A DNA stretch of 64,000 bases from Patescibacteria group bacterium (GTDB lineage Bacteria > Patescibacteriota > Patescibacteriia > Magasanikbacterales > GWA2-37-8), in NCBI GenBank assembly GCA_041661385.1, contig JBAZUP010000001.1:7382-71381 (forward strand), written 5' to 3'. A model generated the notes under the pieces. It made no database searches. It was not told the DNA's origin and was given only the letters and a program-made list of their open reading frames with translations. This document shows positions 2,786 to 53,943 of the stretch, one piece after another. A program made the translations under genes and the position numbers. The number at the start of each line of letters is the position of its first letter. Positions within the stretch are counted from its first letter, which is position 1.

Positions 2786-3232
2786 ATGGCTGAGATTCTT
2801 TATTATAAAAAAGTTTCGTGTCCGGTTAGTAAAGGGCAAGTAGAAAAAATTGTAGATTTGGCCGCAAGTTTTGAGAAAAAAATTTGTGGTATAACAGAAG
2901 TATCAATCGTTTCGGAAAATATTATAAAAAAGTTAAACAAAAAATTTCGAGGAAAAGATAAAGTTACCGATGTGCTTTCTTTCTCCTTGAGAAAAGGGGG
3001 GATAGTGGCGGGCCCTTTTTTTGGCGAACTTTATATTTGTTATCCACAAATTGTAAGGCAAGCAAAAGAATTTGGTGTTTCAGTTAATGAGGAATTTTCA
3101 AGAATGTTAGTGCATGGCTTGTTGCATCTCGCGGATCATGATCATCAAAAAAAAGCTGAATCAGATAAAATGTTTAAATTACAGGAAAAAATAATTACAG
3201 TTGCAAAAAAGAATAGAGTAATTAAAATATGA
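2786..3232 (+). CDS. ybeY: rRNA maturation endoribonuclease YbeY
   Basis: 148 aa with the metal-binding motif HGLLHLADHDH (HxxxHxxxxxH) near the C-terminus. Typical size. Confidence 0.85.
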   Translation: MAEILYYKKVSCPVSKGQVEKIVDLAASFEKKICGITEVSIVSENIIKKLNKKFRGKDKVTDVLSFSLRKGGIVAGPFFGELYICYPQIVRQAKEFGVSVNEEFSRMLVHGLLHLADHDHQKKAESDKMFKLQEKIITVAKKNRVIKI

Positions 3233-3597
3233 CAACTGTCGAAAGATTATTGAGGAGTTTTGCAGATGCCGGGCGAGGCGTTGTGTATGTTTTTAAAAAA
3301 GAACAAAATTTTCGCTTGCAGATTTTTGCTGGTCTAATAGTTTTTGTTACGATTTTCGTTTTACCTCTTCGCTCTTGGGAAACTATTGTTCTTATTTTAA
3401 TGGTGGTTATGGTTCTAACTATGGAACTTTTAAATACTGCTCTAGAAAATTTTACGGATTTGTTTAAACCCCGCATTCATCCGTATGTCGGCATTATTAA
3501 GGATATTATGGCGGCAGCGGTTCTCATTACTGCTCTTGGTGCTTTAGTTATTGGTAGCATTATTATTTATCCTCACTTTATCGGTTTGCTAAAATAG
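3229..3597 (+). CDS. dgkA: diacylglycerol/undecaprenol kinase family (DgkA-like)
   Basis: 122 aa, three TM segments, conserved ELLNTALE motif of the DAGK_prokar family. 4-bp overlap with ybeY. Confidence 0.7.
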   Translation: MTTVERLLRSFADAGRGVVYVFKKEQNFRLQIFAGLIVFVTIFVLPLRSWETIVLILMVVMVLTMELLNTALENFTDLFKPRIHPYVGIIKDIMAAAVLITALGALVIGSIIIYPHFIGLLK

Positions 3598-6220: not shown

Positions 6221-6673
6221 ATGCGTTGTCCGGTTTGCAATTATAAAGAATTAAGCGTACTCGACACCCGCTCTTCTGAGGATGGTCTTTCGGTGCGTCG
6301 CCGGCGTGAGTGCGACAAATGTCATTATCGGTTTTCCACTGTGGAAGAAACAGAATTACTCGACATTATAGTCGTAAAACAAAATGGCGAACGCCAAAGT
6401 TACATGCGTGAAAAAATCGAAAGCGGCATTCGTCGTTCGCTTACCAAGCGTCCTTATACACAGGAAAAATTTCATCAACTCGTTCACCTCATTGAAAGAG
6501 ATATTCAAAAAAAGAAACGCCGTGAAATTGCGAGTAAAGAAATAGGTGAGAGTGTCATGAAGCATCTTCACAGTTTCGATAAAATCGCGTATATTAGGTT
6601 TGCGAGTGTTTACCGAGATTTTAAAGATGTAAAAACTTTTGAAAAAGAACTCAAAAAGTTGAAAATGAAATAA
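6221..6673 (+). CDS. nrdR: transcriptional repressor NrdR (zinc ribbon + ATP-cone)
   Basis: MRCPVCNY...CDKC zinc ribbon at the N-terminus. 150 aa. ATP-cone-like remainder. Confidence 0.9.
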   Translation: MRCPVCNYKELSVLDTRSSEDGLSVRRRRECDKCHYRFSTVEETELLDIIVVKQNGERQSYMREKIESGIRRSLTKRPYTQEKFHQLVHLIERDIQKKKRREIASKEIGESVMKHLHSFDKIAYIRFASVYRDFKDVKTFEKELKKLKMK

Positions 6674-9335: not shown

Positions 9336-10964
9336 CTATTTCCAGCGCTTTACCAGGTAGGTTCTGTCCGGTTTGTAGCCTAATTTTTTATAGTAATCCT
9401 TCACGCCCACTCCTGAAATAACCGCCAGATTTTTAATTTTATTTTTTTTACAGATTTTTTCCGCTTCAATAATCAGTTTCTTGCCAAGACCTTGGTGCTG
9501 GCTTGATTGGCTGCCTTTTTTACCGATTCGAATTAACTGTCCGTAAGTATGAAGCTCGCGGATATAGGCTGGGAAAGGTGCAGTTTTATTTTTTAAGCTT
9601 ACAATTCGGAGACGACAAAAAGCAAAAACAACTTGGCGTTTTTTATCTTCAAAACTTAAAAAATATTCCGTACCGCCGGCAGTTTGGTATTTTTCTAAAA
9701 ATAATTTCGGTGTCAGGTCTTTAATCTGCGTTAAATCAACATGGCCGGCTTCACGACAACGAAGGCATCTGCAAACCAGTCCTTCGTTTTTCATTTCCTC
9801 ATGAATCACTTGGCGCAAGTTTGTTACTCGGTTACCTTCTTCAATGTGTTGACCAGGAATGTCGCGGATTAATCGTGAGATTCGCACATAGCGGGGGACT
9901 TCGCTTTTGAAAGTTTTTATAATATTTACCAAATCTTTGGTTGGATAAGCATGATACTTTCCTTGTTGAAGCCAATCATATAGTTCCGAACCTTTTACTA
10001 CAGTGCAAGGGTAAATTTTTATCATGTCAGGCCGAAGTCCGGGGTCGGAAAAAACTTCTCGCAGCATTTTTAGATCGCTTTTTGGTGTTGCACCCGGTAG
10101 TTGAGGCATTAAATGGAAATCAGTTTTAAAACCAAAATTTCTCGCGAGTTCAGTTGCCTTTTTTGCTTGTTCAATAGTATGACCGCGTTTAATTATTTTA
10201 AGTATTTTATCGTCGGTGTGTTGAACACCGATTTCAAGACGAGTGCAGCCTTGCTCGCGCATTTGCCAAAGAGTTTTTTCTGAAATACTATCCGGGCGAG
10301 TTTCAAGTGTGAGTCCAATTATTCGATGTTTGGATTTTTCGTTTATTTTTTGTTGTTTAACCAGCTCGGTTTTTATTTTTTCAAATGGAGAAGTTTCTTT
10401 TAATTTAATTTTTGTACCGTTTGCCGCCGCAAAAGATTGTAAAATAAACCAATATTGATAAGGAAGCGCATAGGCGTTCCAGGTTCCTCCTTTGACAATT
10501 AACTCTATTTTATCGGTTGGGTGGCCGTTGCGCTCAATTGATTCCAGGCGGCGTGCCATTTGTTCGTAGGGGTTAAATTTTAACGAAAGGGCGCGGCTGG
10601 CAGCTGGTTCATCGGCCAGGTAACTTTTAGGCATTCGAACGTCTAGCGGGCAATAAATGCATTCTCCGGGGCAAGGATAAGGCTTAACAAGCGACGTAAC
10701 AATGGTGACGCCGGAAAGAGTTCGAACCGAACGACGCGTTAAAAGTTTTTCCATTGCAGGGCTGGTTTTGATGCTTTTCTTTCGCAATAAGCTGTGGTAT
10801 GCTTTAAGCAAATCAGTTTTATCAGGAGTGCCTTTTGAGGTCGGAAATTGTTTTACTAAAGCTCGTTTTAACACGCTAAACTCAAGCTCATTTTTAGGGA
10901 GTTTTTTTAGAGCGGAAAATACAATTTTTTCTGCCAAATTCATAGTAAAGTTGAGTATGGACAT
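9336..10964 (-). CDS. elp3: Elp3-like radical SAM + GNAT protein (tRNA wobble-uridine carboxymethylation)
   Basis: Radical SAM cysteine motif CPGECIYCP. C-terminal GNAT acetyltransferase motif (QHQGLGKKLIEEAE). 542 aa. Start may be the M at 10943. Confidence 0.8.
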   Translation of the reverse strand: MSILNFTMNLAEKIVFSALKKLPKNELEFSVLKRALVKQFPTSKGTPDKTDLLKAYHSLLRKKSIKTSPAMEKLLTRRSVRTLSGVTIVTSLVKPYPCPGECIYCPLDVRMPKSYLADEPAASRALSLKFNPYEQMARRLESIERNGHPTDKIELIVKGGTWNAYALPYQYWFILQSFAAANGTKIKLKETSPFEKIKTELVKQQKINEKSKHRIIGLTLETRPDSISEKTLWQMREQGCTRLEIGVQHTDDKILKIIKRGHTIEQAKKATELARNFGFKTDFHLMPQLPGATPKSDLKMLREVFSDPGLRPDMIKIYPCTVVKGSELYDWLQQGKYHAYPTKDLVNIIKTFKSEVPRYVRISRLIRDIPGQHIEEGNRVTNLRQVIHEEMKNEGLVCRCLRCREAGHVDLTQIKDLTPKLFLEKYQTAGGTEYFLSFEDKKRQVVFAFCRLRIVSLKNKTAPFPAYIRELHTYGQLIRIGKKGSQSSQHQGLGKKLIIEAEKICKKNKIKNLAVISGVGVKDYYKKLGYKPDRTYLVKRWK

Positions 10965-11649
10965 TATACAGAAGACCCGCGACGATTACAATAAAATTGC
11001 CTCTTTTTTTGCAGAAACCCGCAGTCATCCGGGTGAGCTGGTACAGTTTAAACCTTTTATCGCGGACGGTCAACAGATTCTGGATTGGGGTTGCGGGAAT
11101 GGCCGGCTGCTTTACATGCTTGAAAAATTTAAAATTAATTATTTTGGCCTTGACCAAAGCAAGGGCCTTTTAAATCAAGCTGAAGCGGAACACCTCAAAC
11201 TGATAAAAAATAAAACTGCCGCATTTTTTTGCACTGCGCATCGTGAAAAAAAATTCCCGCCGGAAACTTTTGATCTAATTTTTTTAATTGCGTCATTTCA
11301 TCATTTGCCGGACAAAAAAAGCCGGCTCAAATTATTAAAAAAATTATATCAGGAATGCAAGACAGGCGGTAAAATGGTCATGACCAATTGGAATTTGGAT
11401 AGCGTCTGGGCAAAAAATAAATTAAAAATTGACTGGGAAAAAACTGGTGACGATGATTTTCTTATTCCCTGGAAAGACAAGAGCGGCAAGGTTTTAGTTA
11501 AACGGTATTATCATAATTTTCAAAGAGATGAAATTAAGGAACTCGCTGTTAAAGCTGGCTGGAAAGTGTTAAAATTATATTATTCAGATGGTCCGGGGGA
11601 GGCAAATAAAAAAACCGGTAAAAATTTGGTGTTAATCGCTGAGAAGTAA
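10957..11649 (+). CDS. class I SAM-dependent methyltransferase (Trm9/Methyltransf_11-like)
   Basis: SAM motif ILDWGCGNGRL. The ORF track's start at 10702 overlaps elp3 on the opposite strand, so the first internal ATG at 10957 (MDIIQK) is taken. Confidence 0.65.
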   Translation: MDIIQKTRDDYNKIASFFAETRSHPGELVQFKPFIADGQQILDWGCGNGRLLYMLEKFKINYFGLDQSKGLLNQAEAEHLKLIKNKTAAFFCTAHREKKFPPETFDLIFLIASFHHLPDKKSRLKLLKKLYQECKTGGKMVMTNWNLDSVWAKNKLKIDWEKTGDDDFLIPWKDKSGKVLVKRYYHNFQRDEIKELAVKAGWKVLKLYYSDGPGEANKKTGKNLVLIAEK

Positions 11650-11650
11650 T

Positions 11651-12868
11651 ATGCGTATTCTGCAAATTGAAAAATTTTTTTATAACCGAGGCGGCTCAAG
11701 TCGTGTATTTTTTGACACGATTGAAGGTTTGCGCCGCAGGGGTAATGAAGTCGCAGAATTTTCTATGCAAGACGGACGTAATTATCCGTCTAAATATGAA
11801 AAATATTTCGCTCCATCTTTGCCGGAATTAAAAAGCCGCTTAAGTTTTAGAGAACAATTTCAGGTTTTTAAGCGGTTATTTAAATCGGAAATAATTGAAA
11901 CCAAACTAACAAATTTAATTGATGATTTTAAACCAGAAGTCGCGCACATTCATAATGCCTATCATCACTTATCTGCCAGCACGTTTATTACTCTTCAGAA
12001 AAAAAATGTTCCGGTAGTTTTAACATTGCACGATGTTTTTCCGCTCTGTCCGAATCACAGCTTATTAATAGGGGAAACACTTGGCGAAAAAGAGCTAAAA
12101 AATAATTTATTCAATTGTCTTCGTTATAAATGCGTCGACGGAAAATTTTTACCAAGCCTCGCCGGGGTATTTGAGGCGCTTTATTATCGGTATCATGGGG
12201 TTTGGAAAAATATTAAAATTTTTATTTGCCCAAGTCAGTTTATGGCCGATAAAATGGTGGAGTATGGTTTTGCGCGTGAAAAGATGCGCGTCATTCGTAA
12301 TCCATTTGTGGTTACACCGTCAGTTTTGCCATTGGGAGATAAAGTTGTCTATCTTGGCCGTTTACATCATGAAAAGGGGATAAAAGTATTTCTTCGTGCC
12401 GCGGAAAAACTTCGAGATTTGCAGCTCGTTGTAGCTGGCAGCGGACAAGATGAAAATTGGGTGAATAATTTTTTGAAGGAAAAAAAATTAAATAATGTTG
12501 AAAGAGTTGGTTGGGTCAGCGGGGAAAAATGGAAACAAATAATGAACGAAGCACGGGTGGTGGTAGTACCGTCGGTATTTTTAGAAAATTGTTCAGTAAG
12601 TATTTTAGAAGCGTTAAGCCACGGCCGATTGGTAGTTGCTAGTGACCGAGGGGGAAATCCGGAAATGATTATTAACGGCAAGACCGGATTTTTATGTCGC
12701 CCAGAAGATCCAGATGACCTTGCTCGCGCAATTCGTGAGGCGATAGAATTACCCGATGCGGAAGCGCAAAGAATGATTGCTTTTGGTCGAGAATTAGTTG
12801 AAACAAATCATAATCCTACAAATTATTTTACGAAATTAAAAGGGGTTTATAATGAAGTAATTAAATAA
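11651..12868 (+). CDS. glycosyltransferase family 4
   Basis: GT-B fold with C-terminal EX7E-type motif region (EALSHGRLVVASDRGGNPEMI). Confidence 0.8.
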   Translation: MRILQIEKFFYNRGGSSRVFFDTIEGLRRRGNEVAEFSMQDGRNYPSKYEKYFAPSLPELKSRLSFREQFQVFKRLFKSEIIETKLTNLIDDFKPEVAHIHNAYHHLSASTFITLQKKNVPVVLTLHDVFPLCPNHSLLIGETLGEKELKNNLFNCLRYKCVDGKFLPSLAGVFEALYYRYHGVWKNIKIFICPSQFMADKMVEYGFAREKMRVIRNPFVVTPSVLPLGDKVVYLGRLHHEKGIKVFLRAAEKLRDLQLVVAGSGQDENWVNNFLKEKKLNNVERVGWVSGEKWKQIMNEARVVVVPSVFLENCSVSILEALSHGRLVVASDRGGNPEMIINGKTGFLCRPEDPDDLARAIREAIELPDAEAQRMIAFGRELVETNHNPTNYFTKLKGVYNEVIK

Positions 12869-13090
12869 AGGGACTTGTTTTACGACTCAATATCCCTGTG
12901 GATAACCCTTTGACCGTTTTTTCCATTCAGCGTATAGTTAATCTCAGTATAAAAATATGAACTTAAATTACACCCGAAATAATGTAGCAATTAAGTTGGC
13001 AGTCGCTGCTGCCTTGCTTCAAGCTATTTGTTTTATCTCGGGTGAACATAGTTCAAATCTTGCCTAAAAGATTATATCGAACCAAATTCA

Positions 13091-13116
13091 CCCGAGATAA
13101 TATCTCGGGTTTTTTT
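13091..13116 (+). terminator. rho-independent terminator (also the 3' arm of an attenuator-like structure)
   Basis: Hairpin cccgagata-a-tatctcggg followed by TTTTTTT. Confidence 0.6.
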
Positions 13117-13225
13117 ATAACGTAAGAATCGGCCAGAAAGGATAATTTTGCATTTTGGCCGGTCCTTAAGTTAATAGGGCCAAAACCTACCCCAGTGGCG
13201 GGGTAAACCAGGGAGGTAGTACGTA

Positions 13226-13618
13226 ATGTGCGAAAATTCTGTTGAGGCAACTCTTCACCGTACGCTGCTGAGCAGGCACACCGCTCAGTCGAGACTCTCG
13301 CATTACGAGGGTTCACCCGAAGAGCTCAGGGAGCTCGCGCGGGTCGCCTGGCTGTTCGCCGGGTCAAGGCCGGGCAAGTTGCCCGACACGGTCGTTCTTT
13401 CCGGCGGCATTCCGCCGACCGGTTTCTTCAGTAAGGATGGTGCGACTCGCACCACCCACGGGATGCTGAAGCCCGAGGCGGTACGCGTGGACATCATCGT
13501 GCTCATCACGAAGCGGGGCGCCTGCAAGGGCGCTGCCGAGATCCAGGTCATCGATTTCCAGGCCTGGGATTCCGAGGTCTGGGAGACGCAGAAGGCACGC
13601 AGTGCCGTAGCCGCCTAA
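13226..13618 (+). CDS. hypothetical protein encoded in GC-rich island 1 (foreign-looking)
   Basis: ~60% GC with strong GC3 periodicity in this frame only. Strong SD GGGAGG 9 nt upstream of the ATG. No family recognised. Confidence 0.45.
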   Translation: MCENSVEATLHRTLLSRHTAQSRLSHYEGSPEELRELARVAWLFAGSRPGKLPDTVVLSGGIPPTGFFSKDGATRTTHGMLKPEAVRVDIIVLITKRGACKGAAEIQVIDFQAWDSEVWETQKARSAVAA

Positions 13619-13790
13619 GGGCGGCAAAAAAAGGTCTGGCGAAGCCTTGTCCGGTTCTTAATAAAAGAACTGACCAAATTCGCCGCATCATTGGCTACCG
13701 ATATTATTATCGATATCCATCGTGCAAACAAGGTTTCTAAATGGTGACGGTTTGCTTTTTTTTTGCTATAATAGGCGTATTAGAAACTCT

Positions 13791-14714
13791 ATGTGGCTTT
13801 CCGTTGCGTTTATTGGCTATGCGTGTCTCGCTGTAGTCTCCATTCTTGATAAATTCATTCTCTCCAAAGAGAAAATTCTTCCGTCCGTTTTTGTATTTTA
13901 TTCTACAATTTTTCTTTTACCGCTCAACTTTGCGGTATTTTTTCTGTCTGCTCGTCCATCGATTTATGTTTCTGGCGTGATAATTTTGTCTGCGGCGGCT
14001 TTTTCGTTTGGACTTTGGACAATGTACCGCGCTTTTGAAAAAAGTGAAGTTAGCCACATGGGTCCTTTTATCGGCGGGCTTATTCCGTTGTTTATTCTCG
14101 TTTTAGGACAGATTTTTTTACCAGAATTCATTACTACCAAACAAGTTATTGGGATCTTGCTCCTCAGTTTTGGCACGATTACCATTTCAATTCAAAAAAA
14201 CATGGGGCGATATTGGAAAAATAGTATTATCTGGGCGTTGGTTGCAGCGGTCTCATTTTCTATTTCTCACATTTCATCCAAATATGTTTATTCCGCAGTC
14301 GGTTTTGGAGCGGGCTTTACCTATATTTGGGGTGCAATGGGTTTTGTCGGGTTAGCGCTGTTATTTACAAAAAATGTTCAGTCAGCAGTTTTTCCTCATC
14401 GCAATATAATTATTTCATTAAAAAACAAAATTTCTTTTCAACATAATAAATCTAAACATCAGGTGGTCGTGGTTGCATCCGACAAGGTGCTTAGCGCGGT
14501 TGGTTCGCTTTCAATTCAATATGCAGTATCGCTTGGCAGTGTTACCAAGGTGTATGCGCTGAGTGGCGCGCAGTATGCTTTTCTAATTTTATTAGTATTT
14601 ATTTTGTCTAGATTTTTTCCGAAAATTTTTCGAGAAAAATATGACGATGGTGAAGTTTATCGTGAATTGATAGCAGTAATTATTATTGCTGTTGGTCTAG
14701 CTTTTTTGGTTTAA
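13791..14714 (+). CDS. polytopic membrane protein, DMT/EamA-like transporter
   Basis: ~10 hydrophobic segments, ~300 aa. Extended -10 (TGcTATAAT at 13764-13772) 19 nt upstream of the ATG at 13791. The track's upstream start at 13722 is a GTG. Confidence 0.5.
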   Translation: MWLSVAFIGYACLAVVSILDKFILSKEKILPSVFVFYSTIFLLPLNFAVFFLSARPSIYVSGVIILSAAAFSFGLWTMYRAFEKSEVSHMGPFIGGLIPLFILVLGQIFLPEFITTKQVIGILLLSFGTITISIQKNMGRYWKNSIIWALVAAVSFSISHISSKYVYSAVGFGAGFTYIWGAMGFVGLALLFTKNVQSAVFPHRNIIISLKNKISFQHNKSKHQVVVVASDKVLSAVGSLSIQYAVSLGSVTKVYALSGAQYAFLILLVFILSRFFPKIFREKYDDGEVYRELIAVIIIAVGLAFLV

Positions 14715-14718
14715 TATT

Positions 14719-15723
14719 ATGAATCACTCCAGGTTTCAGCATCCGAAATTAATGTTGGTTACGGTGTTATTGGCTTTTATTACTATCGCTTGGGCGTGGT
14801 TTATATTTTTTGACAGTATTCACAACAAAAATATGTCTTATGGTTTTTCGTTTGATCCAGAATACGCCGGTTCTTTGAAACTAGATCCCCAAGAGGCGTT
14901 TAAAACAATTATCAATGATTGGAATTTTAAGTATGTTCGTTTGCCGGCTCATTGGGAAAAAATTGAAGCTACCAAAGGCGTTTTTAATTTTAATGAAATA
15001 GATGGATATATTTCTGAAGCAGATAAATCTGGTGTAAAAGTAATTTTGGCCATTGGTAATAAAACACCGCGTTGGCCAGAGTGCCATGCTCCGGCTTGGG
15101 CAAATGCTTTGCCTCGTGAAGAATATATGGTTGAGCTTCGAAAATACATGAGTCAGGTTGTTGAGCATTATAAAAATCATCCTTCAATCGAAATGTGGCA
15201 AGTGGAAAACGAACCGTTTTTACCATTTGGTGAATGTTTGCTTTTGACTCATGCCGAATTAAAAGAAGAAATTAATTTGGTAAAGAAAATTGATGGTAAT
15301 CATCCGGTACTCGTTGCTGACAGCGGCGAACTTAGCACATGGTATTTTACCAGTAAAGCAGCCGATTATTTTGGTACTACATTATATCGGGTTGTTTGGA
15401 ACAAGGTTCTTGGTTATTGGAATTATGATTGGGTGCCGGCGGTTATATATCGTTGGAAAATGTTTTTAGTTGGCAGACCGCTCGATAAAGCGTTTGTGGT
15501 GGAGCTGCAGGCCGAGCCGTGGTCACCAAATCAACCCCTCATGGAGTTGCCGATTGCGGAACAAAATCGATCCATGAATATAACTCGTTTAAAAAAGAAC
15601 ATTGATTTTGCGCAGCGTATTGGAGTCGCTCGTACTTATCTTTGGGGTGCTGAATGGTGGGTTTGGTTGCGTAAAAGTGGTTATAACGAAATTCCAGATT
15701 TTATCAGCACGCTTAATAAATAA
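14719..15723 (+). CDS. membrane-anchored glycoside hydrolase, clan GH-A (GH5-like)
   Basis: N-terminal TM. Conserved W-x-x-ENEP catalytic acid/base motif (WQVENEP) typical of GH5/GH-A (beta/alpha)8 hydrolases. Confidence 0.55.
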   Translation: MNHSRFQHPKLMLVTVLLAFITIAWAWFIFFDSIHNKNMSYGFSFDPEYAGSLKLDPQEAFKTIINDWNFKYVRLPAHWEKIEATKGVFNFNEIDGYISEADKSGVKVILAIGNKTPRWPECHAPAWANALPREEYMVELRKYMSQVVEHYKNHPSIEMWQVENEPFLPFGECLLLTHAELKEEINLVKKIDGNHPVLVADSGELSTWYFTSKAADYFGTTLYRVVWNKVLGYWNYDWVPAVIYRWKMFLVGRPLDKAFVVELQAEPWSPNQPLMELPIAEQNRSMNITRLKKNIDFAQRIGVARTYLWGAEWWVWLRKSGYNEIPDFISTLNK

Positions 15724-15749
15724 AAAACAATCCAATTTGGATTGTTTTG

Positions 15750-15823
15750 TGCGCGCTGGGGGATTCGAACCCTCGACCCCCTCGGTGTAAACGAGGTGCT
15801 CTAACCAACTGAGCTAAGCGCGC
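15750..15823 (-). tRNA. tRNA-Val (anticodon TAC)
   Basis: Reverse complement folds as a cloverleaf. Acceptor stem GCGCGCT/AGCGCGC. Anticodon stem CCTCG/CGAGG with loop TTTACAC. TTCGAAT T-loop. No encoded CCA. Confidence 0.85.
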
Positions 15824-15893
15824 AAGGCACAAACATTCTATACTAAAATTAAAAAAAAGTCCAGAGTAGAGATGTAGATCACATTAAAATTAC

Positions 15894-17072
15894 ATGCGTT
15901 CAGAAAAACAAGTATTTTTACATCGCGGCATTTATAAACCTTCTGCTACACTTTCAGAGGCGGTGTTTATGATTACCGGCATGACCATTGGTGCGGGAGT
16001 TCTCGCCATTCCTTATGCTGTAGCACAGGTCGGACTTCTCACCGGCATTGCTTATATTGCCGCTCTTGGTTTAATTATAATGTTTTTAAATTTAATGATC
16101 GGGGAGATCGCCAGCCGCACAAAAGAGCCGATGCAACTGGCTGGTTTTGCCGGAAAATATCTTGGGAGTTGGGCAAAATATTTTCTTTCTTTTATTTTCT
16201 TATTTAGCGCTTTTGGAACTTTGCTCGTTTATGTTATCGGTGAAGGAACTTCGCTCGCTGCAGTTTTTGGCGGTTCACCCACGCTTTGGAGTGTGGTTTT
16301 TTGGTCAGTCGGTAGTTTTCTTATCTGGGGTGGTTTAAAGCGAATTAAAAGCATTGATAAATTATTCGGTATCATAATTATGGGAATAATTACCGGATTA
16401 TCACTTTATCTTTTACCGCGTTTTAATTTTGCGGAATTATCATATTTTGACGGCTCACAGATATTTTTTCCGCTAGGTGTAATTCTTTTCGCTCTTCATG
16501 CCTCACCGGCAATTTCCGAAGCCCATGCTCTTTTGCCGAATCGAGCTCGTGATTTTCGTCGAGCTTTAATTCTTGGAACTATCATACCAATTCTATTGTA
16601 TATTATCTTTACGATTGCGGTGGTTGGTTTTACTGGAGCCGAAACGTCCGAAATAGCGACCATTGGGCTTGGCGTGGCTCTAGGGCCGTTTATTGGGGTT
16701 ATGGCGAATGTTTTTGCTGTCTTAGCCATGAGCACGGGTTTTATTGGCCTTGGCACAGCTTTGCGTGAGACATTATCATGGGATTTAAAGGTGCCAGATA
16801 AAGGATCGCTTTTTTTGGTTGTTTCAGTACCTTTAATTCTATTTCTATTTGGAATTCGTAGTTTTATTTCGGTTTTGGATGTTGTTGGTACAGTTGGTAT
16901 TGCTTTTGAAGGTATTATTATGGGGTGGGTATATCTGCGGGCGCGCAAGGGCTCAGATGCATTGCCGGAAAGTTACTTATCTCCGCGTCATCCATTACTT
17001 ATTTCTTTTCCGGTTATCGCGTTCTTCGGTTCACTGCTTCTCTTTAGTTTCTATCGTTTTTTTGTAAAATAA
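15894..17072 (+). CDS. amino acid permease (APC/HAAAP superfamily)
   Basis: 392 aa, ~11 TM segments. N-terminal GMTIGAGVLAIPYA motif typical of amino-acid transporter families. Confidence 0.65.
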   Translation: MRSEKQVFLHRGIYKPSATLSEAVFMITGMTIGAGVLAIPYAVAQVGLLTGIAYIAALGLIIMFLNLMIGEIASRTKEPMQLAGFAGKYLGSWAKYFLSFIFLFSAFGTLLVYVIGEGTSLAAVFGGSPTLWSVVFWSVGSFLIWGGLKRIKSIDKLFGIIIMGIITGLSLYLLPRFNFAELSYFDGSQIFFPLGVILFALHASPAISEAHALLPNRARDFRRALILGTIIPILLYIIFTIAVVGFTGAETSEIATIGLGVALGPFIGVMANVFAVLAMSTGFIGLGTALRETLSWDLKVPDKGSLFLVVSVPLILFLFGIRSFISVLDVVGTVGIAFEGIIMGWVYLRARKGSDALPESYLSPRHPLLISFPVIAFFGSLLLFSFYRFFVK

Positions 17073-17090
17073 AAAAATATATTTAATAAC

Positions 17091-17717
17091 AATAGCGCGG
17101 CCTCAGCCGCGCTTTTTTTGTTTTTATTTTATAATAAATATCGCCTTGTCGGGCGGATGTTCGCTACCCCATTTGTGCAAACAAACGGGGTAGCACCCCA
17201 AAATTGCCGAGCTAGCTGTTCGGCTCCGCAACTCACATCAGCTCAACGAGCTGTGGCGCAGAACTCGTCGCTTGACACTCCTCAAACAGCTGCACCACCC
17301 ACGCTCGTTTTCACTGTGTCGAGTTGTGTCACCTCACATGCGCTCGGAACCGAACGTTGGCTAATTACCAACTGGTGACCGAGCCTATACGTAGTGAGTT
17401 GCAAACTACCCGAGGAAATTAGATTTTTTCAATGTGATTATGCTGATTTGAAAAAATCTAATTTCGCCGGCCATTTATTCTCGTTCCACAAAGGCTCGGA
17501 GGTGAATTGTTGGTAATTGGCCAACAACGGGGGTTTGGGGAAGTCGATATCCCGAGTTCTCGCGAACGAGTGGTTATATCGACGATCTCCCCAAAACCTT
17601 TGGTTACTTTCAGTTATGAAAGTAACATTGAGAATAATTTAAGAGAAAATAGAGTAAACATCGCGATAGCGATAAGATGTATTTAAATATAAATAGCGAG
17701 GCTGAGGCCGCGCTATT
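17091..17717 (+). repeat. intergenic modular repeat, copy A (~627 bp, flanked by 22-bp terminal inverted repeats)
   Basis: Left end aatagcgcggcctcagccgcgc, right end gcgaggctgaggccgcgctatt (reverse complement, 1 mismatch). Shares modules M1-M4 with copies B and C. Confidence 0.6.
17095..17119 (+). terminator. terminator hairpin gcgcgg-cctcag-ccgcgc + T7; also the left terminal inverted repeat of repeat copy A
   Basis: Perfect 6-bp GC stem followed by TTTTTTT directly after the permease stop. Confidence 0.6.
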
Positions 17718-19514: not shown

Positions 19515-19895
19515 TTATTGAAGTGGGGGAGTTGGTTTGTTGTTTAAAACTGGGGGAACAGCCGGTTTGTTTGTTTCACCGGTTTCAGTCGGTAATTTTG
19601 GTTTTATAGACTTTGGGTTGGGGGAGTAGAGTGGGTTCTTTATTTTCCACTTATCCACATATTGTCCAATACCTTTTTTAAGCAATTTGTTTTTTACGGT
19701 GGTATGTCGTTGTGACCATTTAACTAAGCTTTCAAAATTAAGTTTATATCGTCCGGAAACTACCACATAAGTTACTTCCTGAGATCGTATTGCACGACGG
19801 ATTGTTTGCGAATTAACACCAAAAAGCCGGGCTGCCTCGGATATAGATACCCGAATTAGCTCTTTCTGCTCTTTGTTATTTATGTCTTCGGCCAT
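19515..19895 (-). CDS. helix-turn-helix DNA-binding protein (excisionase/MerR-like HTH) with Pro-rich tail
   Basis: HTH segment ISEAARLFGVNSQTIRRAI. Start taken at the ATG at 19895 (MAEDINN); the track's start at 19940 would overlap the operator. Confidence 0.55.
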   Translation of the reverse strand: MAEDINNKEQKELIRVSISEAARLFGVNSQTIRRAIRSQEVTYVVVSGRYKLNFESLVKWSQRHTTVKNKLLKKGIGQYVDKWKIKNPLYSPNPKSIKPKLPTETGETNKPAVPPVLNNKPTPPLQ

Positions 19896-20097: not shown

Positions 20098-20470
20098 ATA
20101 TGCGCGGCCTCAGCCGCGCTATTTTTTTATATCGCCCTGTCGGGCGGATGTTCGCTACCCCATTTGTGCAAACAAACGGGGTAGCACCCCAAAATTGCCT
20201 CGCAGTTGTTTCACTCGACAAATGTCACGTCGAAATCAAAACGATTTTTTCAAAGGTGCATAGTCGCATTGAAAAAATCTAATTTCGCCGGCCATTTGCT
20301 CTCGTTCCACAAAGGCTCGGGGGGACATTTGTTGGCCAACCAGTGGGGGTTTGGGGGCCGCCAGCTGTTTGAGGAGCTCGCGCGACGAGTTCTGCCGGCC
20401 CCCAGAACCTTTTGATTACTTTTCAGTTATGAAAAGTGATGCCGCCGGCAGGGCTAAGGAAATAAGTATT
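20098..20470 (+). repeat. intergenic modular repeat, copy B
   Basis: Starts with the same gcgcggcctcagccgcgc hairpin + T-run. ~95% identity to copy A over module M1. Shares M2-M4 with compensatory stem differences. Confidence 0.6.
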
Positions 20471-26734: not shown

Positions 26735-27190
26735 CCACCCATTTTGTGCGCCCAAAACGGGTGGATCCCAAAAGGCGCCGAGCTGATACTTAGCTCGGCA
26801 AATGCCTCGGCGAAATCAAAACGATTTTTTCAAAAGTGCAAGGTCGCATTGAAAAAATCTAATTTCGTCGGGCAGTTTGCGGCTCGCTTCATATAGGCTC
26901 GGTCACGAATTGTTACCAATTGGCGAGTCCGAGTCTTTTGTGAAGCGATGCCACTTGTCTGGGCGAGGTGAACGTGGGTGGCGCAGTTGTTTGAGCCCAC
27001 AGGCGAGTTCTGCGCCACAGTGAGACGAGCCCTAGAAAGTGGCGAAGTGGAACAACCGACTCGGAGCCTTTTTGGTTTCTTTTTGGGCGAACAAAAAGAA
27101 ACCGCTCGCCGCGCAGGCGTGGCAGCCAGTCCGGCGAGGACTGTTGTTTGAGTAACAGCCAGATTGGTGACTATCTTTGACAAAGACCCG
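26735..27190 (+). repeat. intergenic modular repeat, copy C
   Basis: Shares the loop-ttgtgc hairpin, module M2 (gattttttcaa...ttgaaaaaatc palindrome, ~90% identical to copy B) and a cagaactcg/ctcaaacagctg segment in inverted orientation. Confidence 0.55.
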
Positions 27191-37923: not shown

Positions 37924-38042
37924 TTGATTTTACGCATAAATTAGCTAAAAAGTCAGGTTTAACCTTGATTTTTTTGCTATTTTAGGGTATTATTATTGGT
38001 CTTTTGGCCACTCTCGGCCGAAAGCAAACCAGGAGAGAATCC

Positions 38043-38627
38043 GTGAATTCCGAATCGCTGAACCAGCAGGTGTGGGTCGCCGTGACCAGACTCACCGCCC
38101 TTTTCAAGGGCGATCCAAACGGCGAGGAAGCTGTGAAGAATGCTTTGGCTCAGTTGCTCCGACTGGTGGATCCCTCGAAGCCCTACGGCACGGTGCTGTT
38201 TGACAGTCTCTCCAGGCTCACTTGGAGCATCGCCTTCGAGGGCGTTGCTCTCCGGTTGAATCCGAAGACCAAGAAGCCCGAGGTCTTCCTCAGGAAGCGT
38301 GCCGACGATGACACGGCCTATCCTGGGGAGTGGCATGCCCCCGGTTCGGCCTTCCGTCCCCGGGAGAAGCCAAACCTCGTCGCGAGGCGTCTCTCTCGTG
38401 AGTTCGGGTCCGAGATCATGGACTTCAAGCTGGTGGGGCAGTACTTCTCCAACGAGCAGAGAGGCGACTTCTTGTCGCTCATCTACCTCGTGAAGTTCGA
38501 CGGCGAGCCCCGCGTCGACAACCGGCACATCTGGTGTCCGGTCGACAAGCTGCCGGAGAATACGGTCAACATTCACCGGGATCACCTCATCCCGGCTGCG
38601 GTCGCTGCATATCGCTCGTCTCACTAG
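38043..38627 (+). CDS. Nudix hydrolase resembling GDP-mannose mannosyl hydrolase (Gmm/NudD/WcaH), encoded in GC-rich island 2
   Basis: ~60% GC with GC3 periodicity on the + strand. AGGAGA SD 6 nt before GTG 38043; the track's TTG is at 38004. Modified Nudix box GEWHAPGSAFRPREKPNLVARRLSREFG aligns position-by-position with the Gmm box [29 protein letters not shown]. Confidence 0.5.
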   Translation: MNSESLNQQVWVAVTRLTALFKGDPNGEEAVKNALAQLLRLVDPSKPYGTVLFDSLSRLTWSIAFEGVALRLNPKTKKPEVFLRKRADDDTAYPGEWHAPGSAFRPREKPNLVARRLSREFGSEIMDFKLVGQYFSNEQRGDFLSLIYLVKFDGEPRVDNRHIWCPVDKLPENTVNIHRDHLIPAAVAAYRSSH

Positions 38628-52407: not shown

Positions 52408-53943
52408 TTATTTTGCAAGGCGTTGATCGCCAATCTCTCTTTCTTTACGTCGCCGTTTGTAGTCTTCGGTATTCACCGTTTCCCACGCCCAATCGCGCAG
52501 TATGACCACTTCCTCCGGCGGCACTATTGTATTTTTCATTACAGCATTTTTCCAATTCATCGTGTCCGGATCGAAATCCGGCGATAAATGGCCTCCTTTT
52601 ATTGCAATGCTGTAAAGTTTGCTCCCAGGGAACGGGATGGGAATGAAGAATGTTACGTGTCTCGCGCCAGCGTCGATGAGTTTTTTTGCGAGCTCAACAG
52701 TCTCATTCATTTCAGCTTTCGTTTCATCGGGGAACCCAATCATCATATTGACGGGGCAGTTGATCCCGATTTTCACGGCTTCGCGCACTAGTTCAAGCAC
52801 GTTGAGCTTGTCATGACGAAGTTTGGACGAGGCGTATTTGTCCAGAATGCGTTGATTTCCAGATTCAACCGGAAAGACGATTTCATTAAATCCGGCCGCA
52901 CTCAGGATTTCCAAATATTCCACGTCTGGCTTTAGTCGCCCAGTTGAGGTCGGGATACCAAAGTGGACGAGGTTTACGCCGTTTATACCGCTAATCTTCA
53001 GTCCGAGACCCGCGAGGCGATGAAAAAGGTCTTTGATTCGAGCTTTTTTGGCGAGGAGACTATCATCCTCAATGTAGAGGTGGGTTACTCCAAGCGCCAA
53101 CAGTATCTTTAGTTCCTCCATAACGCGGTCGATGGATTTGAAACGCAACGAACCAGTACCACCAGTGAGGGAGTCCGTCTCACGCTCTTCACTGATATGA
53201 CAGTAAGCGCAATGAAATGGACAGCCACGGGAGGTCATGATTGAGGCGTAACGCTCTCGTTGATCGGTCATGGGGACGCTGCTGTGGGGGCTGTTGATCT
53301 CGTCATACTTGGCAAATGGCAGCAGATCCCATGCAGGAATCGGCAGCTCATCAAGATTACTCGAGATCAAATTCGGCGTCACCGGACGAGTTATGACGGA
53401 TCCCTTGTGAAGATACTTAATTCCGTCAACTTTGTCGAACGAGGAATTTTGCTGCCAGGCGCGGACGAGATTAACGATAATTTTTTCACCCTCGGTAAGG
53501 ACTACAACGTCCACCAAGCGGCTTGCAAAGAATCGTTCTGACAGCGCGCGGGCATTAACACCACCTGCGATAACCAAGGTATTTGGGTTTACTTCCTTAG
53601 CAATTTTGGCCACCTCCAGAGCCATATTGGTCTGGGGCGTAAAGTTGTTGCTGATGCCCACTATATCGTAGCTACCTTTGGTAAAATATTCCCGCAAGCG
53701 ATCCGCGGTCATACCAATACGCGTAAGGCCGTTTGGCAGAAGAACACGGTTGTGGAATGTATTACTAAGGTAGTCTTCATTTGTTCCAACTGAAGCGTCC
53801 AACAAATCAACTTCAAATCCTGCTCGACGAAGGGCGCCGGCAAGGTACAATGGGCCGAGCGAGCCATCCGGTCGTGGCATTTCAATTGCCATTAGTTGAT
53901 TGGGTGGATAGACCAAAAGAATCTTCGGTTGAAGCTTTGACAT
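52408..53943 (-). CDS. B12-binding (class B) radical SAM enzyme
   Basis: N-terminal cobalamin-binding Rossmann-like domain, then radical SAM core with CPFHCAYCH (CxxxCxxC). Confidence 0.85.
   Translation of the reverse strand: MSKLQPKILLVYPPNQLMAIEMPRPDGSLGPLYLAGALRRAGFEVDLLDASVGTNEDYLSNTFHNRVLLPNGLTRIGMTADRLREYFTKGSYDIVGISNNFTPQTNMALEVAKIAKEVNPNTLVIAGGVNARALSERFFASRLVDVVVLTEGEKIIVNLVRAWQQNSSFDKVDGIKYLHKGSVITRPVTPNLISSNLDELPIPAWDLLPFAKYDEINSPHSSVPMTDQRERYASIMTSRGCPFHCAYCHISEERETDSLTGGTGSLRFKSIDRVMEELKILLALGVTHLYIEDDSLLAKKARIKDLFHRLAGLGLKISGINGVNLVHFGIPTSTGRLKPDVEYLEILSAAGFNEIVFPVESGNQRILDKYASSKLRHDKLNVLELVREAVKIGINCPVNMMIGFPDETKAEMNETVELAKKLIDAGARHVTFFIPIPFPGSKLYSIAIKGGHLSPDFDPDTMNWKNAVMKNTIVPPEEVVILRDWAWETVNTEDYKRRRKEREIGDQRLAK

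Follow-up and report, generated by a model that had tools for sequence, protein, structure and literature searches.

In Bacillus subtilis, the bmrCD genes are preceded by a leader ORF, bmrB, for which three alternative stem-loops have been described; translation of this ORF is required for induction, and the promoter is under the control of a separate DNA-binding regulator (PMC4191407). A full-text literature search returned no paper linking Patescibacteria with attenuation or leader peptides. To our knowledge, cis-regulatory RNAs in general are almost undescribed in this group (Candidate Phyla Radiation).

Here we describe a leader of related layout in a 64,000-nucleotide stretch of a Patescibacteria group genome (the window; GCA_041661385.1, contig JBAZUP010000001.1), to which all coordinates below refer. 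It is very likely to be a real on/off switch of the classical kind, not described before, for the GC-rich genes located behind it, and constitutes a new family, for which there is no Rfam model, with textbook logic. From the sequences, we infer with moderate confidence a ribosome-mediated transcription attenuator of the leader-peptide type, equipped with its own promoter.

Results

Terminator and antiterminator

The core of the leader lies downstream of a glycosyltransferase-type (GT4) gene and includes three segments:

11651–12868, forward strand: GT4 gene, the upstream neighbour of the leader
13033–13047, forward strand: segment B, including IR1 tatctcgggtgaa (13034–13046), inside the 3' end of the leader ORF; its partner is either segment A or segment C
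13087–13100, forward strand: segment C, including IR2 ttcacccgagata (13087–13099); the segment supplies the 3' arm of the antiterminator as well as the 5' arm of the terminator
13101–13116, forward strand: segment D, the 3' arm of the terminator, followed by the T7 tract (terminator scan)

The initial annotation had described IR1 as perfectly complementary to IR2, and both the coordinates and the description are correct (13/13 bp by reading of the sequence); in an inverted-repeat search, the pairing extends to 22 nt with 86% complementarity (13033–13054 with 13079–13100). The terminator, which consists of ACCCGAGAT-aat-ATCTCGGGT and T7, occupies positions 13090–13116 (stem 13090–13110) and was the top terminator-like site of the interval 10000–17000 in the terminator scan, with a stem of 9 pairs (5 of them G-C), a loop of 3 nt, a T7 tract and a hairpin energy of -12.8 kcal/mol. 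Because IR2 is common to both helices, serving at the same time as the 5' arm of the terminator, the terminator and the antiterminator are mutually exclusive, as had also been proposed.

The strength of this competition was evaluated as the best duplex that the 5' arm of the terminator plus six upstream bases can form with the upstream transcript. The IR1:IR2 duplex of the window reaches -20.3 kcal/mol, compared with -6.6 +/- 1.9 kcal/mol in dinucleotide shuffles of the upstream sequence, none of which was as strong (0/500). An empirical control was provided by 32 terminator-like sites found on both strands of approximately 200 kb of sequence, comprising the window and related loci: terminators of the leaders occupy 9 of the 10 top ranks for an upstream complement of the 5' arm, and nearly all ordinary terminators fall between about -6 and -11 kcal/mol, with a single one at -14.3 kcal/mol. 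The fold of the RNA spanning 12940–13120 has a z score of -7.0. The arrangement of IR1, IR2 and the terminator is thus correct and far beyond chance. No second copy of the leader was found within the window.

Conservation of the alternative pairing in related loci

Relatives were reached through a search with the GT4 protein and through the contigs that carry its homologues, and nhmmer added two copies in rearranged loci; GT4 scans of genome and metagenome contig collections yielded only distant or truncated loci. The comparison covers 10 distinct leaders (the window, L010, L011, L012, L017, L018, L019, L021, L022 and L024), and two further sequences, L015 and L016, end inside the promoter. 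In another two assemblies (L005 and L006) the region is identical to that of the window, which argues against misassembly; carrying no comparative signal, they were left out of the comparison. The neighbouring GT4 proteins are 61–77% identical to that of the window (57–84% across the wider list of homologues), and the leader alignments have a mean column identity of about 58%.

A terminator is found at the corresponding place in all 10 loci, and in each of them the best upstream partner of its 5' arm is the homologous B site. The B:C energies, from -12.7 to -23.3 kcal/mol, are similar to those of the terminator hairpins (-9.7 to -16.3 kcal/mol) or stronger; the numbers of shuffles that matched the observed B:C energy were, per locus, 0, 13, 1, 2, 0, 2, 1, 24, 0 and 0 of 500. 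A lack of conserved IR1/IR2 pairing in relatives had been named in the initial annotation as one observation that would speak against an attenuator expression platform in which a terminator and an antiterminator compete; the comparison of relatives suggested there finds the pairing conserved in 10/10 loci despite the nucleotide divergence, and the platform stands.

When RNAalifold was applied to a MAFFT alignment made without structure information, the consensus consisted of an internal hairpin, P2, and the B:C helix rather than the terminator. In this consensus structure 89.1% of the cells are paired, compared with 79.9% in shuffles (0/500), and the covariation score is 0.388, compared with 0.229 in shuffles (0/500); in slid registers only 26–55% of the cells are paired. 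The core of the B:C helix, GGGUG/CACCC, is nearly invariant, so that strict covariation is limited to its flanks, and a GGG/GGGG shift of register between aligned sequences, which inflates some of the double changes, confounds it in part; the clean changes in the flanks are A-U to G-C in L019 (GGGGC/GCCCC) and A-U to U-A in L018 and L024 (GUGAU/AUCAC). Those parts of the terminator stem that lie outside B:C drift freely (GAG/CTC, TGAA/TTCA, TGT/ACA) and the shared part is frozen, which is the footprint to be expected if B, C and D are jointly constrained. Column-wise counts for the terminator were dropped on the MAFFT alignment, which does not bring the CCCGAG and CCCTGAG stems into register. 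The alignments produced by two covariance models contained reverse-strand (palindromic) and spurious matches and missed L018 and L024, and were therefore not used for pair counts.

Leader ORF, segment A and hairpin P2

The transcript upstream of segment C is largely occupied by a short ORF, within which two further elements are located:

12957–13067, forward strand: leader ORF of 36 codons, MNLNYTRNNVAIKLAVAAALLQAICFISGEHSSNLA, without a Shine-Dalgarno (SD) motif and with a 5'UTR of about 12 nt
12971–12982, forward strand: segment A (anti-antiterminator), CACCCGAAATAA, an inverted repeat with segment B (12 nt, 92% complementarity)
12998–13013, forward strand: hairpin P2, GGCAG-tcgctg-CTGCC, followed by conserved CCTTGaTT (RNAalifold consensus)

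The ORF covers A, P2 and B. In the window, its stop codon (13065–13067) is located about 20 nt before C (13087) and 22 nt before the terminator stem. In all 10 loci, the frame is open from the aligned ATG, over 32–41 codons, and in the 8 loci in which the distance was measured the stop codon lies 20–28 nt 5' of segment C; the other two frames contain 2–6 stops each. The encoded peptides share a mean pairwise amino-acid identity of 24%, and nucleotide identities at codon positions 1, 2 and 3 are 0.49, 0.49 and 0.44, with almost no periodicity. What appears as peptide conservation (His-Thr/Ser near the N-terminus, Gly-Glu near the C-terminus) coincides with the RNA motifs CACCC of segment A and GGGUGA of segment B. 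A frame that is kept while the peptide is free to vary suggests that the act of translation, not the peptide, is conserved, and such a signature would be expected of a regulatory leader peptide rather than of a functional small protein. Aligned by codon, the 10 leader ORFs nowhere show a series of regulatory codons, and the leader peptide contains nothing recognisable as an arrest motif. In lacking an SD motif, the leader ORF resembles the host genes: the motif precedes 2 of the 51 long ORFs of the window and none of 35 in the loci of the relatives.

Segment A went unnoticed in the initial annotation. In the window, it pairs with B at 11 of 12 positions (inverted-repeat search), and a direct-repeat search showed that A is similar to C and B to D, the segment types being CACCC for A, GGGUG for B, CACCC for C and GGGU, then U7, for D. 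The pairings A:B, B:C and C:D thus reproduce the classical 1:2 / 2:3 / 3:4 layout of attenuators. The position of A, the alternative partner of B, varies across the loci in the alignment, and hence the support for A:B is thermodynamic, not covariational. Hairpin P2 has 5 pairs, of which 3 vary in both strands of the stem, and 86% of its cells in the alignment are paired; the compensatory variants among the loci include GGCAG/CTGCC, GGCGG/CCGCC, GGCAAT/ATTGCC and AAGGTAA/TTACCTT. Together with the CCUUGAUU that follows it, P2 could act as a pause site that synchronises the ribosome with the polymerase.

In a thermodynamic model of folding during transcription, the minimum free energy (MFE) fold of the prefix ending just after B contains A:B, enclosing P2, in 10/10 loci, and that of the prefix ending before D emerges contains B:C in 9/10, the exception being L019, which retains A:B. 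Once the RNA is full-length, the terminator state is better by 1–19 kcal/mol than the state in which D is unpaired. It is approximately equal in energy to the B:C state in the window, L017 and L021, and the full-length MFE structure contains B:C in the window and L017. Such near-equal energies of the terminator and B:C fit a switch that is decided kinetically.

The initial annotation had interpreted the approximately 170 nt upstream of IR1 as a possible ligand- or protein-binding domain with further hairpins. This interpretation is not borne out: the first ~75 nt (12869–12944) consist mostly of a DnaA box and a promoter, which together account for 12897–12944, 5' of the predicted transcription start, the remainder is a poorly conserved ORF, and there is no Rfam family. 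As for the hairpins, ggcag/ctgcc is P2, conserved with compensatory changes, and aggga/tccct (12869–12897) is located upstream of the predicted start and is absent in relatives. The Rfam/Infernal scan that had been recommended found no family in the region. At the gathering score, Rfam, including the Trp, His, Leu and Thr leader families, gave no leader match in the whole window, only tRNA; searches by E-value produced chance-level matches only, both for 12700–13400 (E<=10) and for 13600–13800. Neither a known aptamer family nor strongly conserved junction or loop nucleotides, either of which would identify a riboswitch, was found, and the sensor region is an ORF. A conserved ORF with little sequence conservation, preceded by promoter DNA, points to leader-peptide attenuation rather than to a riboswitch. 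Of the features expected of attenuators of that type, those of sequence and structure are present, namely an intrinsic terminator in the 5' leader, a conserved antiterminator, an anti-antiterminator within the ORF and a maintained short ORF.

Promoter and DnaA box

Upstream of the ORF, two DNA elements adjoin each other:

12897–12905, forward strand: DnaA box TGTGGATAA, the reverse complement of TTATCCACA, matching the consensus at 9/9 positions (regular-expression match)
12910–12938, forward strand: sigma-70-type promoter TTGACC-17-TATAGT, matching 10/12 consensus positions

The promoter was the joint best of the interval 10000–17000 in the promoter scan, and the predicted transcription start lies near 12945. 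The motif TTGACC-16/17-TAnnnT is present in 7 of the 8 loci scanned with identical criteria, and in L018 and L024 TTGACC adjoins the DnaA box. The box itself, 4 nt from the -35 element in the window, matches the consensus at 9/9 positions and lies 4–5 nt from the -35 element in all 12 related sequences that reach this point (the window, L010, L011, L012, L015, L016, L017, L018, L019, L021, L022 and L024). A conserved DnaA box adjoining a core promoter makes this a candidate DnaA-regulated promoter, to which DnaA may bind; the invariance of the box suggests a second input by which replication status might be linked to the locus. In several relatives, L015 and L021 among them, a separate terminator of the GT4 gene is located upstream of the DnaA box, indicating that the leader is a transcription unit of its own and that the hairpin at 13090 is not simply the terminator of the GT4 gene.

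Downstream genes and surroundings

The T-tract is followed by an untranslated region and a gene of unusual composition:

13117–13225, forward strand: 5'UTR of the downstream gene, with a hairpin at 13130–13161 and the SD motif GGGAGG at 13211–13216
13226–13618, forward strand: candidate regulated gene, encoding a 130-aa protein (63% GC, distant DUF3228-like fold)

The placement of the element after the GT4 gene and before an SD-led ORF had been recognised in the initial annotation and is confirmed, the distance from the T-tract to the ORF at 13226 being 109 nt. The GC content of this 130-codon ORF is 63%, compared with roughly 39% for the genome. In the window, L010, L011, L012 and L017, the promoter scan detected no promoter-like site in the interval that separates the terminator from the following ORF; the exception is L019, which carries a good TTGACA-17-TATAAA promoter there. 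L010 and L011 have a hairpin at the position corresponding to 13130–13161, but its stem sequences differ.

The 130-aa protein is annotated as a hypothetical protein in NCBI. Homologues with 31–33% identity are encoded at the matching place in L010, L011 and L012, and the family comprises 7 members in a set of 5.8 billion proteins and 25 cluster representatives at E<=0.001 among 1.84 billion. Its best link by fold and sequence is to DUF3228/2pd0, below the gathering score of DUF3228 (Pfam PF11539); searches against PHROGs, PADLOC, Pfam, Foldseek PDB and Foldseek BFVD gave nothing significant. In other loci, the leader precedes other small families, for example, L012_110/L017_110, and ORFs resembling Zn-ribbons are found behind it in L010, L017, L018 and L024. 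The cassette genes are small and fast-evolving, and across the loci all of them have a GC content of 56–64% and a strong SD motif. The idea that further ORFs of the cassettes might be paralogues of the 130-aa protein was considered and rejected, as searches with an HMM and with jackhmmer recovered the four known members and no others.

In L018 and L024, the leader and the cassette are found together before folD instead of EamA, with rearranged flanks. Signs of a mobile island were also considered and rejected: att-like repeats flanking the island (13081–13092 and 13673–13684, 11/12) are at chance level and were not reproduced in relatives, and the similarity of B and D, which might have represented a target-site duplication, shrinks to a CGGGT core in relatives. 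A blastn search with 12869–13700 against a plasmid collection gave no match.

Discussion

Proposed mechanism

In the mechanism that we propose, transcription would start near 12945, at the promoter adjoining the DnaA box, and the four segments would all be contained in the first ~170 nt of the RNA. Formation of A:B and C:D would produce the terminator and stop transcription at 13116; formation of B:C would produce the antiterminator and allow transcription to continue into the GC-rich gene at 13226. Which of the two states prevails would depend on the ribosome. If none is present, A:B would form, followed by C:D and termination. A ribosome that keeps pace, being positioned on B or at the stop codon as C and D emerge, would mask B, leaving C free to pair with D, again with termination as the outcome. 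A ribosome that lags or comes to a halt near the beginning of the ORF, on segment A or close to it, would leave B free to pair with C, and the polymerase would read through. Given that the leader ORFs lack a run of regulatory codons, the switch would report translation speed or stress and not the supply of one amino acid; general translation speed or stress, or an effect of a nascent peptide or a drug, is a more likely signal than a single amino acid. Promoter activity may additionally depend on DnaA. Both the translation of the ORF and the coupling of the ribosome to the polymerase are presumed in this scheme.

Alternative explanations

The same conserved alternative structures would also apply if the sensor were not a ribosome. 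A protein, perhaps the product of the cassette in a feedback loop, an sRNA or a metabolite could bind the A-P2-B region and tip the balance between A:B and B:C, the ORF being incidental or secondary. This explanation gains from the lack of regulatory codons in the leader ORFs and from the conservation of AAGAAGG...CCTTGATT, the flanks and base of P2: apart from B, C and D, no part of the transcript is better conserved, as would be expected of a site bound by a protein. The putative sensor, however, has a nucleotide identity of about 47%, does not display the conserved junction and loop nucleotides typical of aptamers and matches no Rfam family, and an open frame with a fixed stop position in 10/10 diverged loci would be left unexplained; we consider such a sensor unlikely. 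Somewhat less probable still is that the first ~170 nt are an independent unit, encoding a small protein or an sRNA and ending at its own terminator, with the downstream genes expressed by leak-through or from promoters of their own and B:C acting in RNA stability or in translation control. The unit does have its own promoter and terminator, the centre of the peptide is moderately hydrophobic, and a separate promoter precedes the next ORF in L019. Yet, the peptide is not conserved (24% identity), with charged residues in the 'hydrophobic' stretch at several loci, no promoter precedes the cassette in 5 loci, and the leader and the cassette co-migrate; moreover, conserved competition for the 5' arm of the terminator, which is absent from ordinary terminators, would have no obvious role.

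Two further explanations fare considerably worse. A system resembling type III toxin-antitoxin modules, in which the terminated leader RNA would be the antitoxin and the terminator would set the ratio of RNA to an RNase-like toxin, is very improbable: the repeat search revealed no tandem antitoxin repeats, only the similarities between arms A and C and between B and D; the 130-aa protein is linked best to DUF3228/2pd0 and not to a toxin; none of the known type III families of endoribonuclease toxins was found downstream, with PADLOC and Pfam giving nothing and Foldseek nothing significant; and the leader contains a maintained ORF and precedes unrelated cassette families in other loci. That the hairpin is an ordinary terminator of the GT4 gene, accompanied by a fortuitous upstream repeat, has practically no probability left. 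It is located 3' of this gene on the shared strand, but lies 220 nt past the GT4 stop codon, behind a conserved promoter, and relatives have a separate terminator for GT4; chance is excluded by the shuffles and the control terminators, and the pairing is conserved in 10 loci. A plain GT4 terminator is, indeed, already refuted by the comparative data. Ribosome-mediated attenuation is the reading with the best support.

Implications

If this reading is correct, the locus is a clean, comparatively supported case of classical leader-peptide attenuation in Patescibacteria, and transcription-translation coupling as well as translation of SD-less ORFs with short leaders would be required in these bacteria. 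The leader also opens an experimental route to a group of puzzling genes that are rich in GC, carry SD motifs and evolve fast, and the pairing of a conserved switch carrying a DnaA box with foreign-looking, SD-bearing cassettes in genomes with SD-less genes raises its interest. A more far-reaching proposal, which we regard as rather doubtful, sees in the leader a conserved 'expression port' that serves a small, hypervariable site for gene cassettes, where a promoter gated by DnaA, and thereby by replication state, and then an attenuator gated by ribosome speed, and thereby by translation state, drive interchangeable foreign-looking genes (DUF3228-like, Zn-ribbon-like), possibly as a module triggered by stress or infection. 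Were this the case, the site could represent a defence, dormancy or host-interaction module of a kind undescribed for these episymbiotic bacteria.

Comparison with known systems

With the amino-acid leaders (trpL, hisL, leuL, thrL and pheL), the leader shares the 1:2 / 2:3 / 3:4 logic, the location of segment 1 within the ORF and the identity of 3:4 as an intrinsic terminator; unlike in those systems, there are no cognate codon runs, segment 2 is also located within the ORF, and the downstream genes are not biosynthetic. The leaders of mef/mel(msrD) (PMC4335068) and erm resemble the proposed mechanism in using a short leader peptide as the sensor, ribosome slowing as the signal and competition between a terminator and an antiterminator as the output, but here no resistance gene follows and the peptide has no known arrest motif. 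In ToxIN, similarly, a small gene follows a structured non-coding region, and the terminator that separates the two sets their relative expression; by contrast, the leader described here lacks RNA repeats and its ORF is maintained, and the protein encoded downstream is not a toxin of the ToxN type.

The closest studied counterpart is the bmrB-bmrCD leader of B. subtilis. The two are unrelated in sequence, and the terminator is located inside the ORF in B. subtilis but after it in the leader; the genes under control encode an ABC transporter in the former and small GC-rich proteins in the latter, in a Patescibacterium with SD-less genes. Both, however, combine a small promoter-proximal ORF that is devoid of an amino-acid codon run with alternative stem-loops, one of which is an intrinsic terminator, and in both, according to the mechanism proposed here, translation of the ORF would decide on read-through, with a further input at the promoter, represented by AbrB in B. 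subtilis and by the DnaA box in the leader.

Shine-Dalgarno motifs and GC content of the cassettes

Every ORF downstream of the leader, the proposed transcription attenuator, carries a strong Shine-Dalgarno (SD) motif and has a GC content of 56–64%, both in the window and in the related Patescibacteria loci L010, L012, L017, L018 and L024. By comparison, the GC content of host genes in the same genomes is ~40–51%, and SD motifs are essentially absent from them: among long ORFs, 2 of 51 carry one in the window and 0 of 35 in the loci of the relatives. The relatives differ from one another in cassette content.

Cassette regions behind the leader
Window, 13211-13618
L010, 3326-4166
L012, 6535-7662
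L017, 1670-2823
L018, 8385-8943
L024, 6545-6951

A second GC-rich island of the window (38004-38627, ~53% GC per kb) contains just one ORF, of 207 aa, with an AT-rich host gene on either side; the island lacks a leader of the attenuator kind, and its ORF is unrelated to the 130-aa family. On the minus strand, a 511-aa ORF (52408-53943) may be another foreign-looking gene, given that it lies in a GC-richer stretch (49%) and carries the SD-like motif AAGGAG; just one other long ORF of the window has a motif of this kind.

The EamA transporter gene, the next host gene after the cassette, has an apparent extended −10 promoter of its own (TGcTATAAT; 13744-13793), only ~18 nt upstream of the called ATG at 13791, which implies a very short 5′UTR, like that of the leader ORF. 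Such an arrangement is in keeping with a genome in which initiation is normally short-leader and SD-less.

Non-coding elements flanking the cassette

Several loci share a GGTC-N5-GACC palindrome, which reads TGGTCAAGATGACCA in L017, in the 5′UTR that separates the leader terminator from the first cassette ORF; the palindrome could represent an operator or an RNA hairpin.

GGTC-N5-GACC palindromes
L010, ~3277-3289
L011, ~6564-6576
L012, ~6520-6532
L017, ~1648-1660
Window, 13162-13184, looser version

On the 3′ side of the 130-aa gene, a non-coding stretch of ~100 nt is conserved between the window and the related locus L011 far above the level of the gene itself.

Conserved non-coding stretch
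Window, 13633-13735
L011, 7082-7185

Identity across the aligned intergenic region is 74%, with long identical blocks in the stretch, such as AAATTCGCCGCATCATTGGC, and two hairpins that are kept in both loci with differing stems. The stretch has no match in Rfam, and its counterpart was not found in related loci other than L011.

DnaA boxes, repeats and a putative mobile element

Besides that of the leader, the 64 kb contain two perfect DnaA boxes, TTATCCACA, which brings the total to three where ~0.5 would be expected; if up to one mismatch is allowed, there are 26 boxes for an expectation of ~14.

Further perfect DnaA boxes
Window, 3040-3048
Window, 19651-19659

There is neither a DnaA-box cluster nor a GC-skew switch in the window, so it contains no replication origin.

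Two pairs of direct repeats, located ~1.3 kb beyond a tRNA gene, flank ~3 kb with a minus-strand ORF of 576 aa.

tRNA gene and direct repeats
15750-15823, minus strand, tRNA gene
17138-17208 and 20129-20199, 71-nt repeats, 99% identical
17448-17502 and 20269-20323, 55-nt repeats, 95% identical

Probably, this region represents a mobile element that has integrated here, or what is left of one. The repeat is present a third time, in diverged form, near 26.8 kb (26737-26915), and an HTH_17 (excisionase-like) gene adjoins the 576-aa ORF in L005, a contig identical to the window.

Elsewhere, ORFs at 831-2783 include repeated 39-nt Asp-rich units (1308-2195; GCTGATACCGATxxxGATGG...), which encode calcium-binding repeats resembling the type-3 repeats of thrombospondin.
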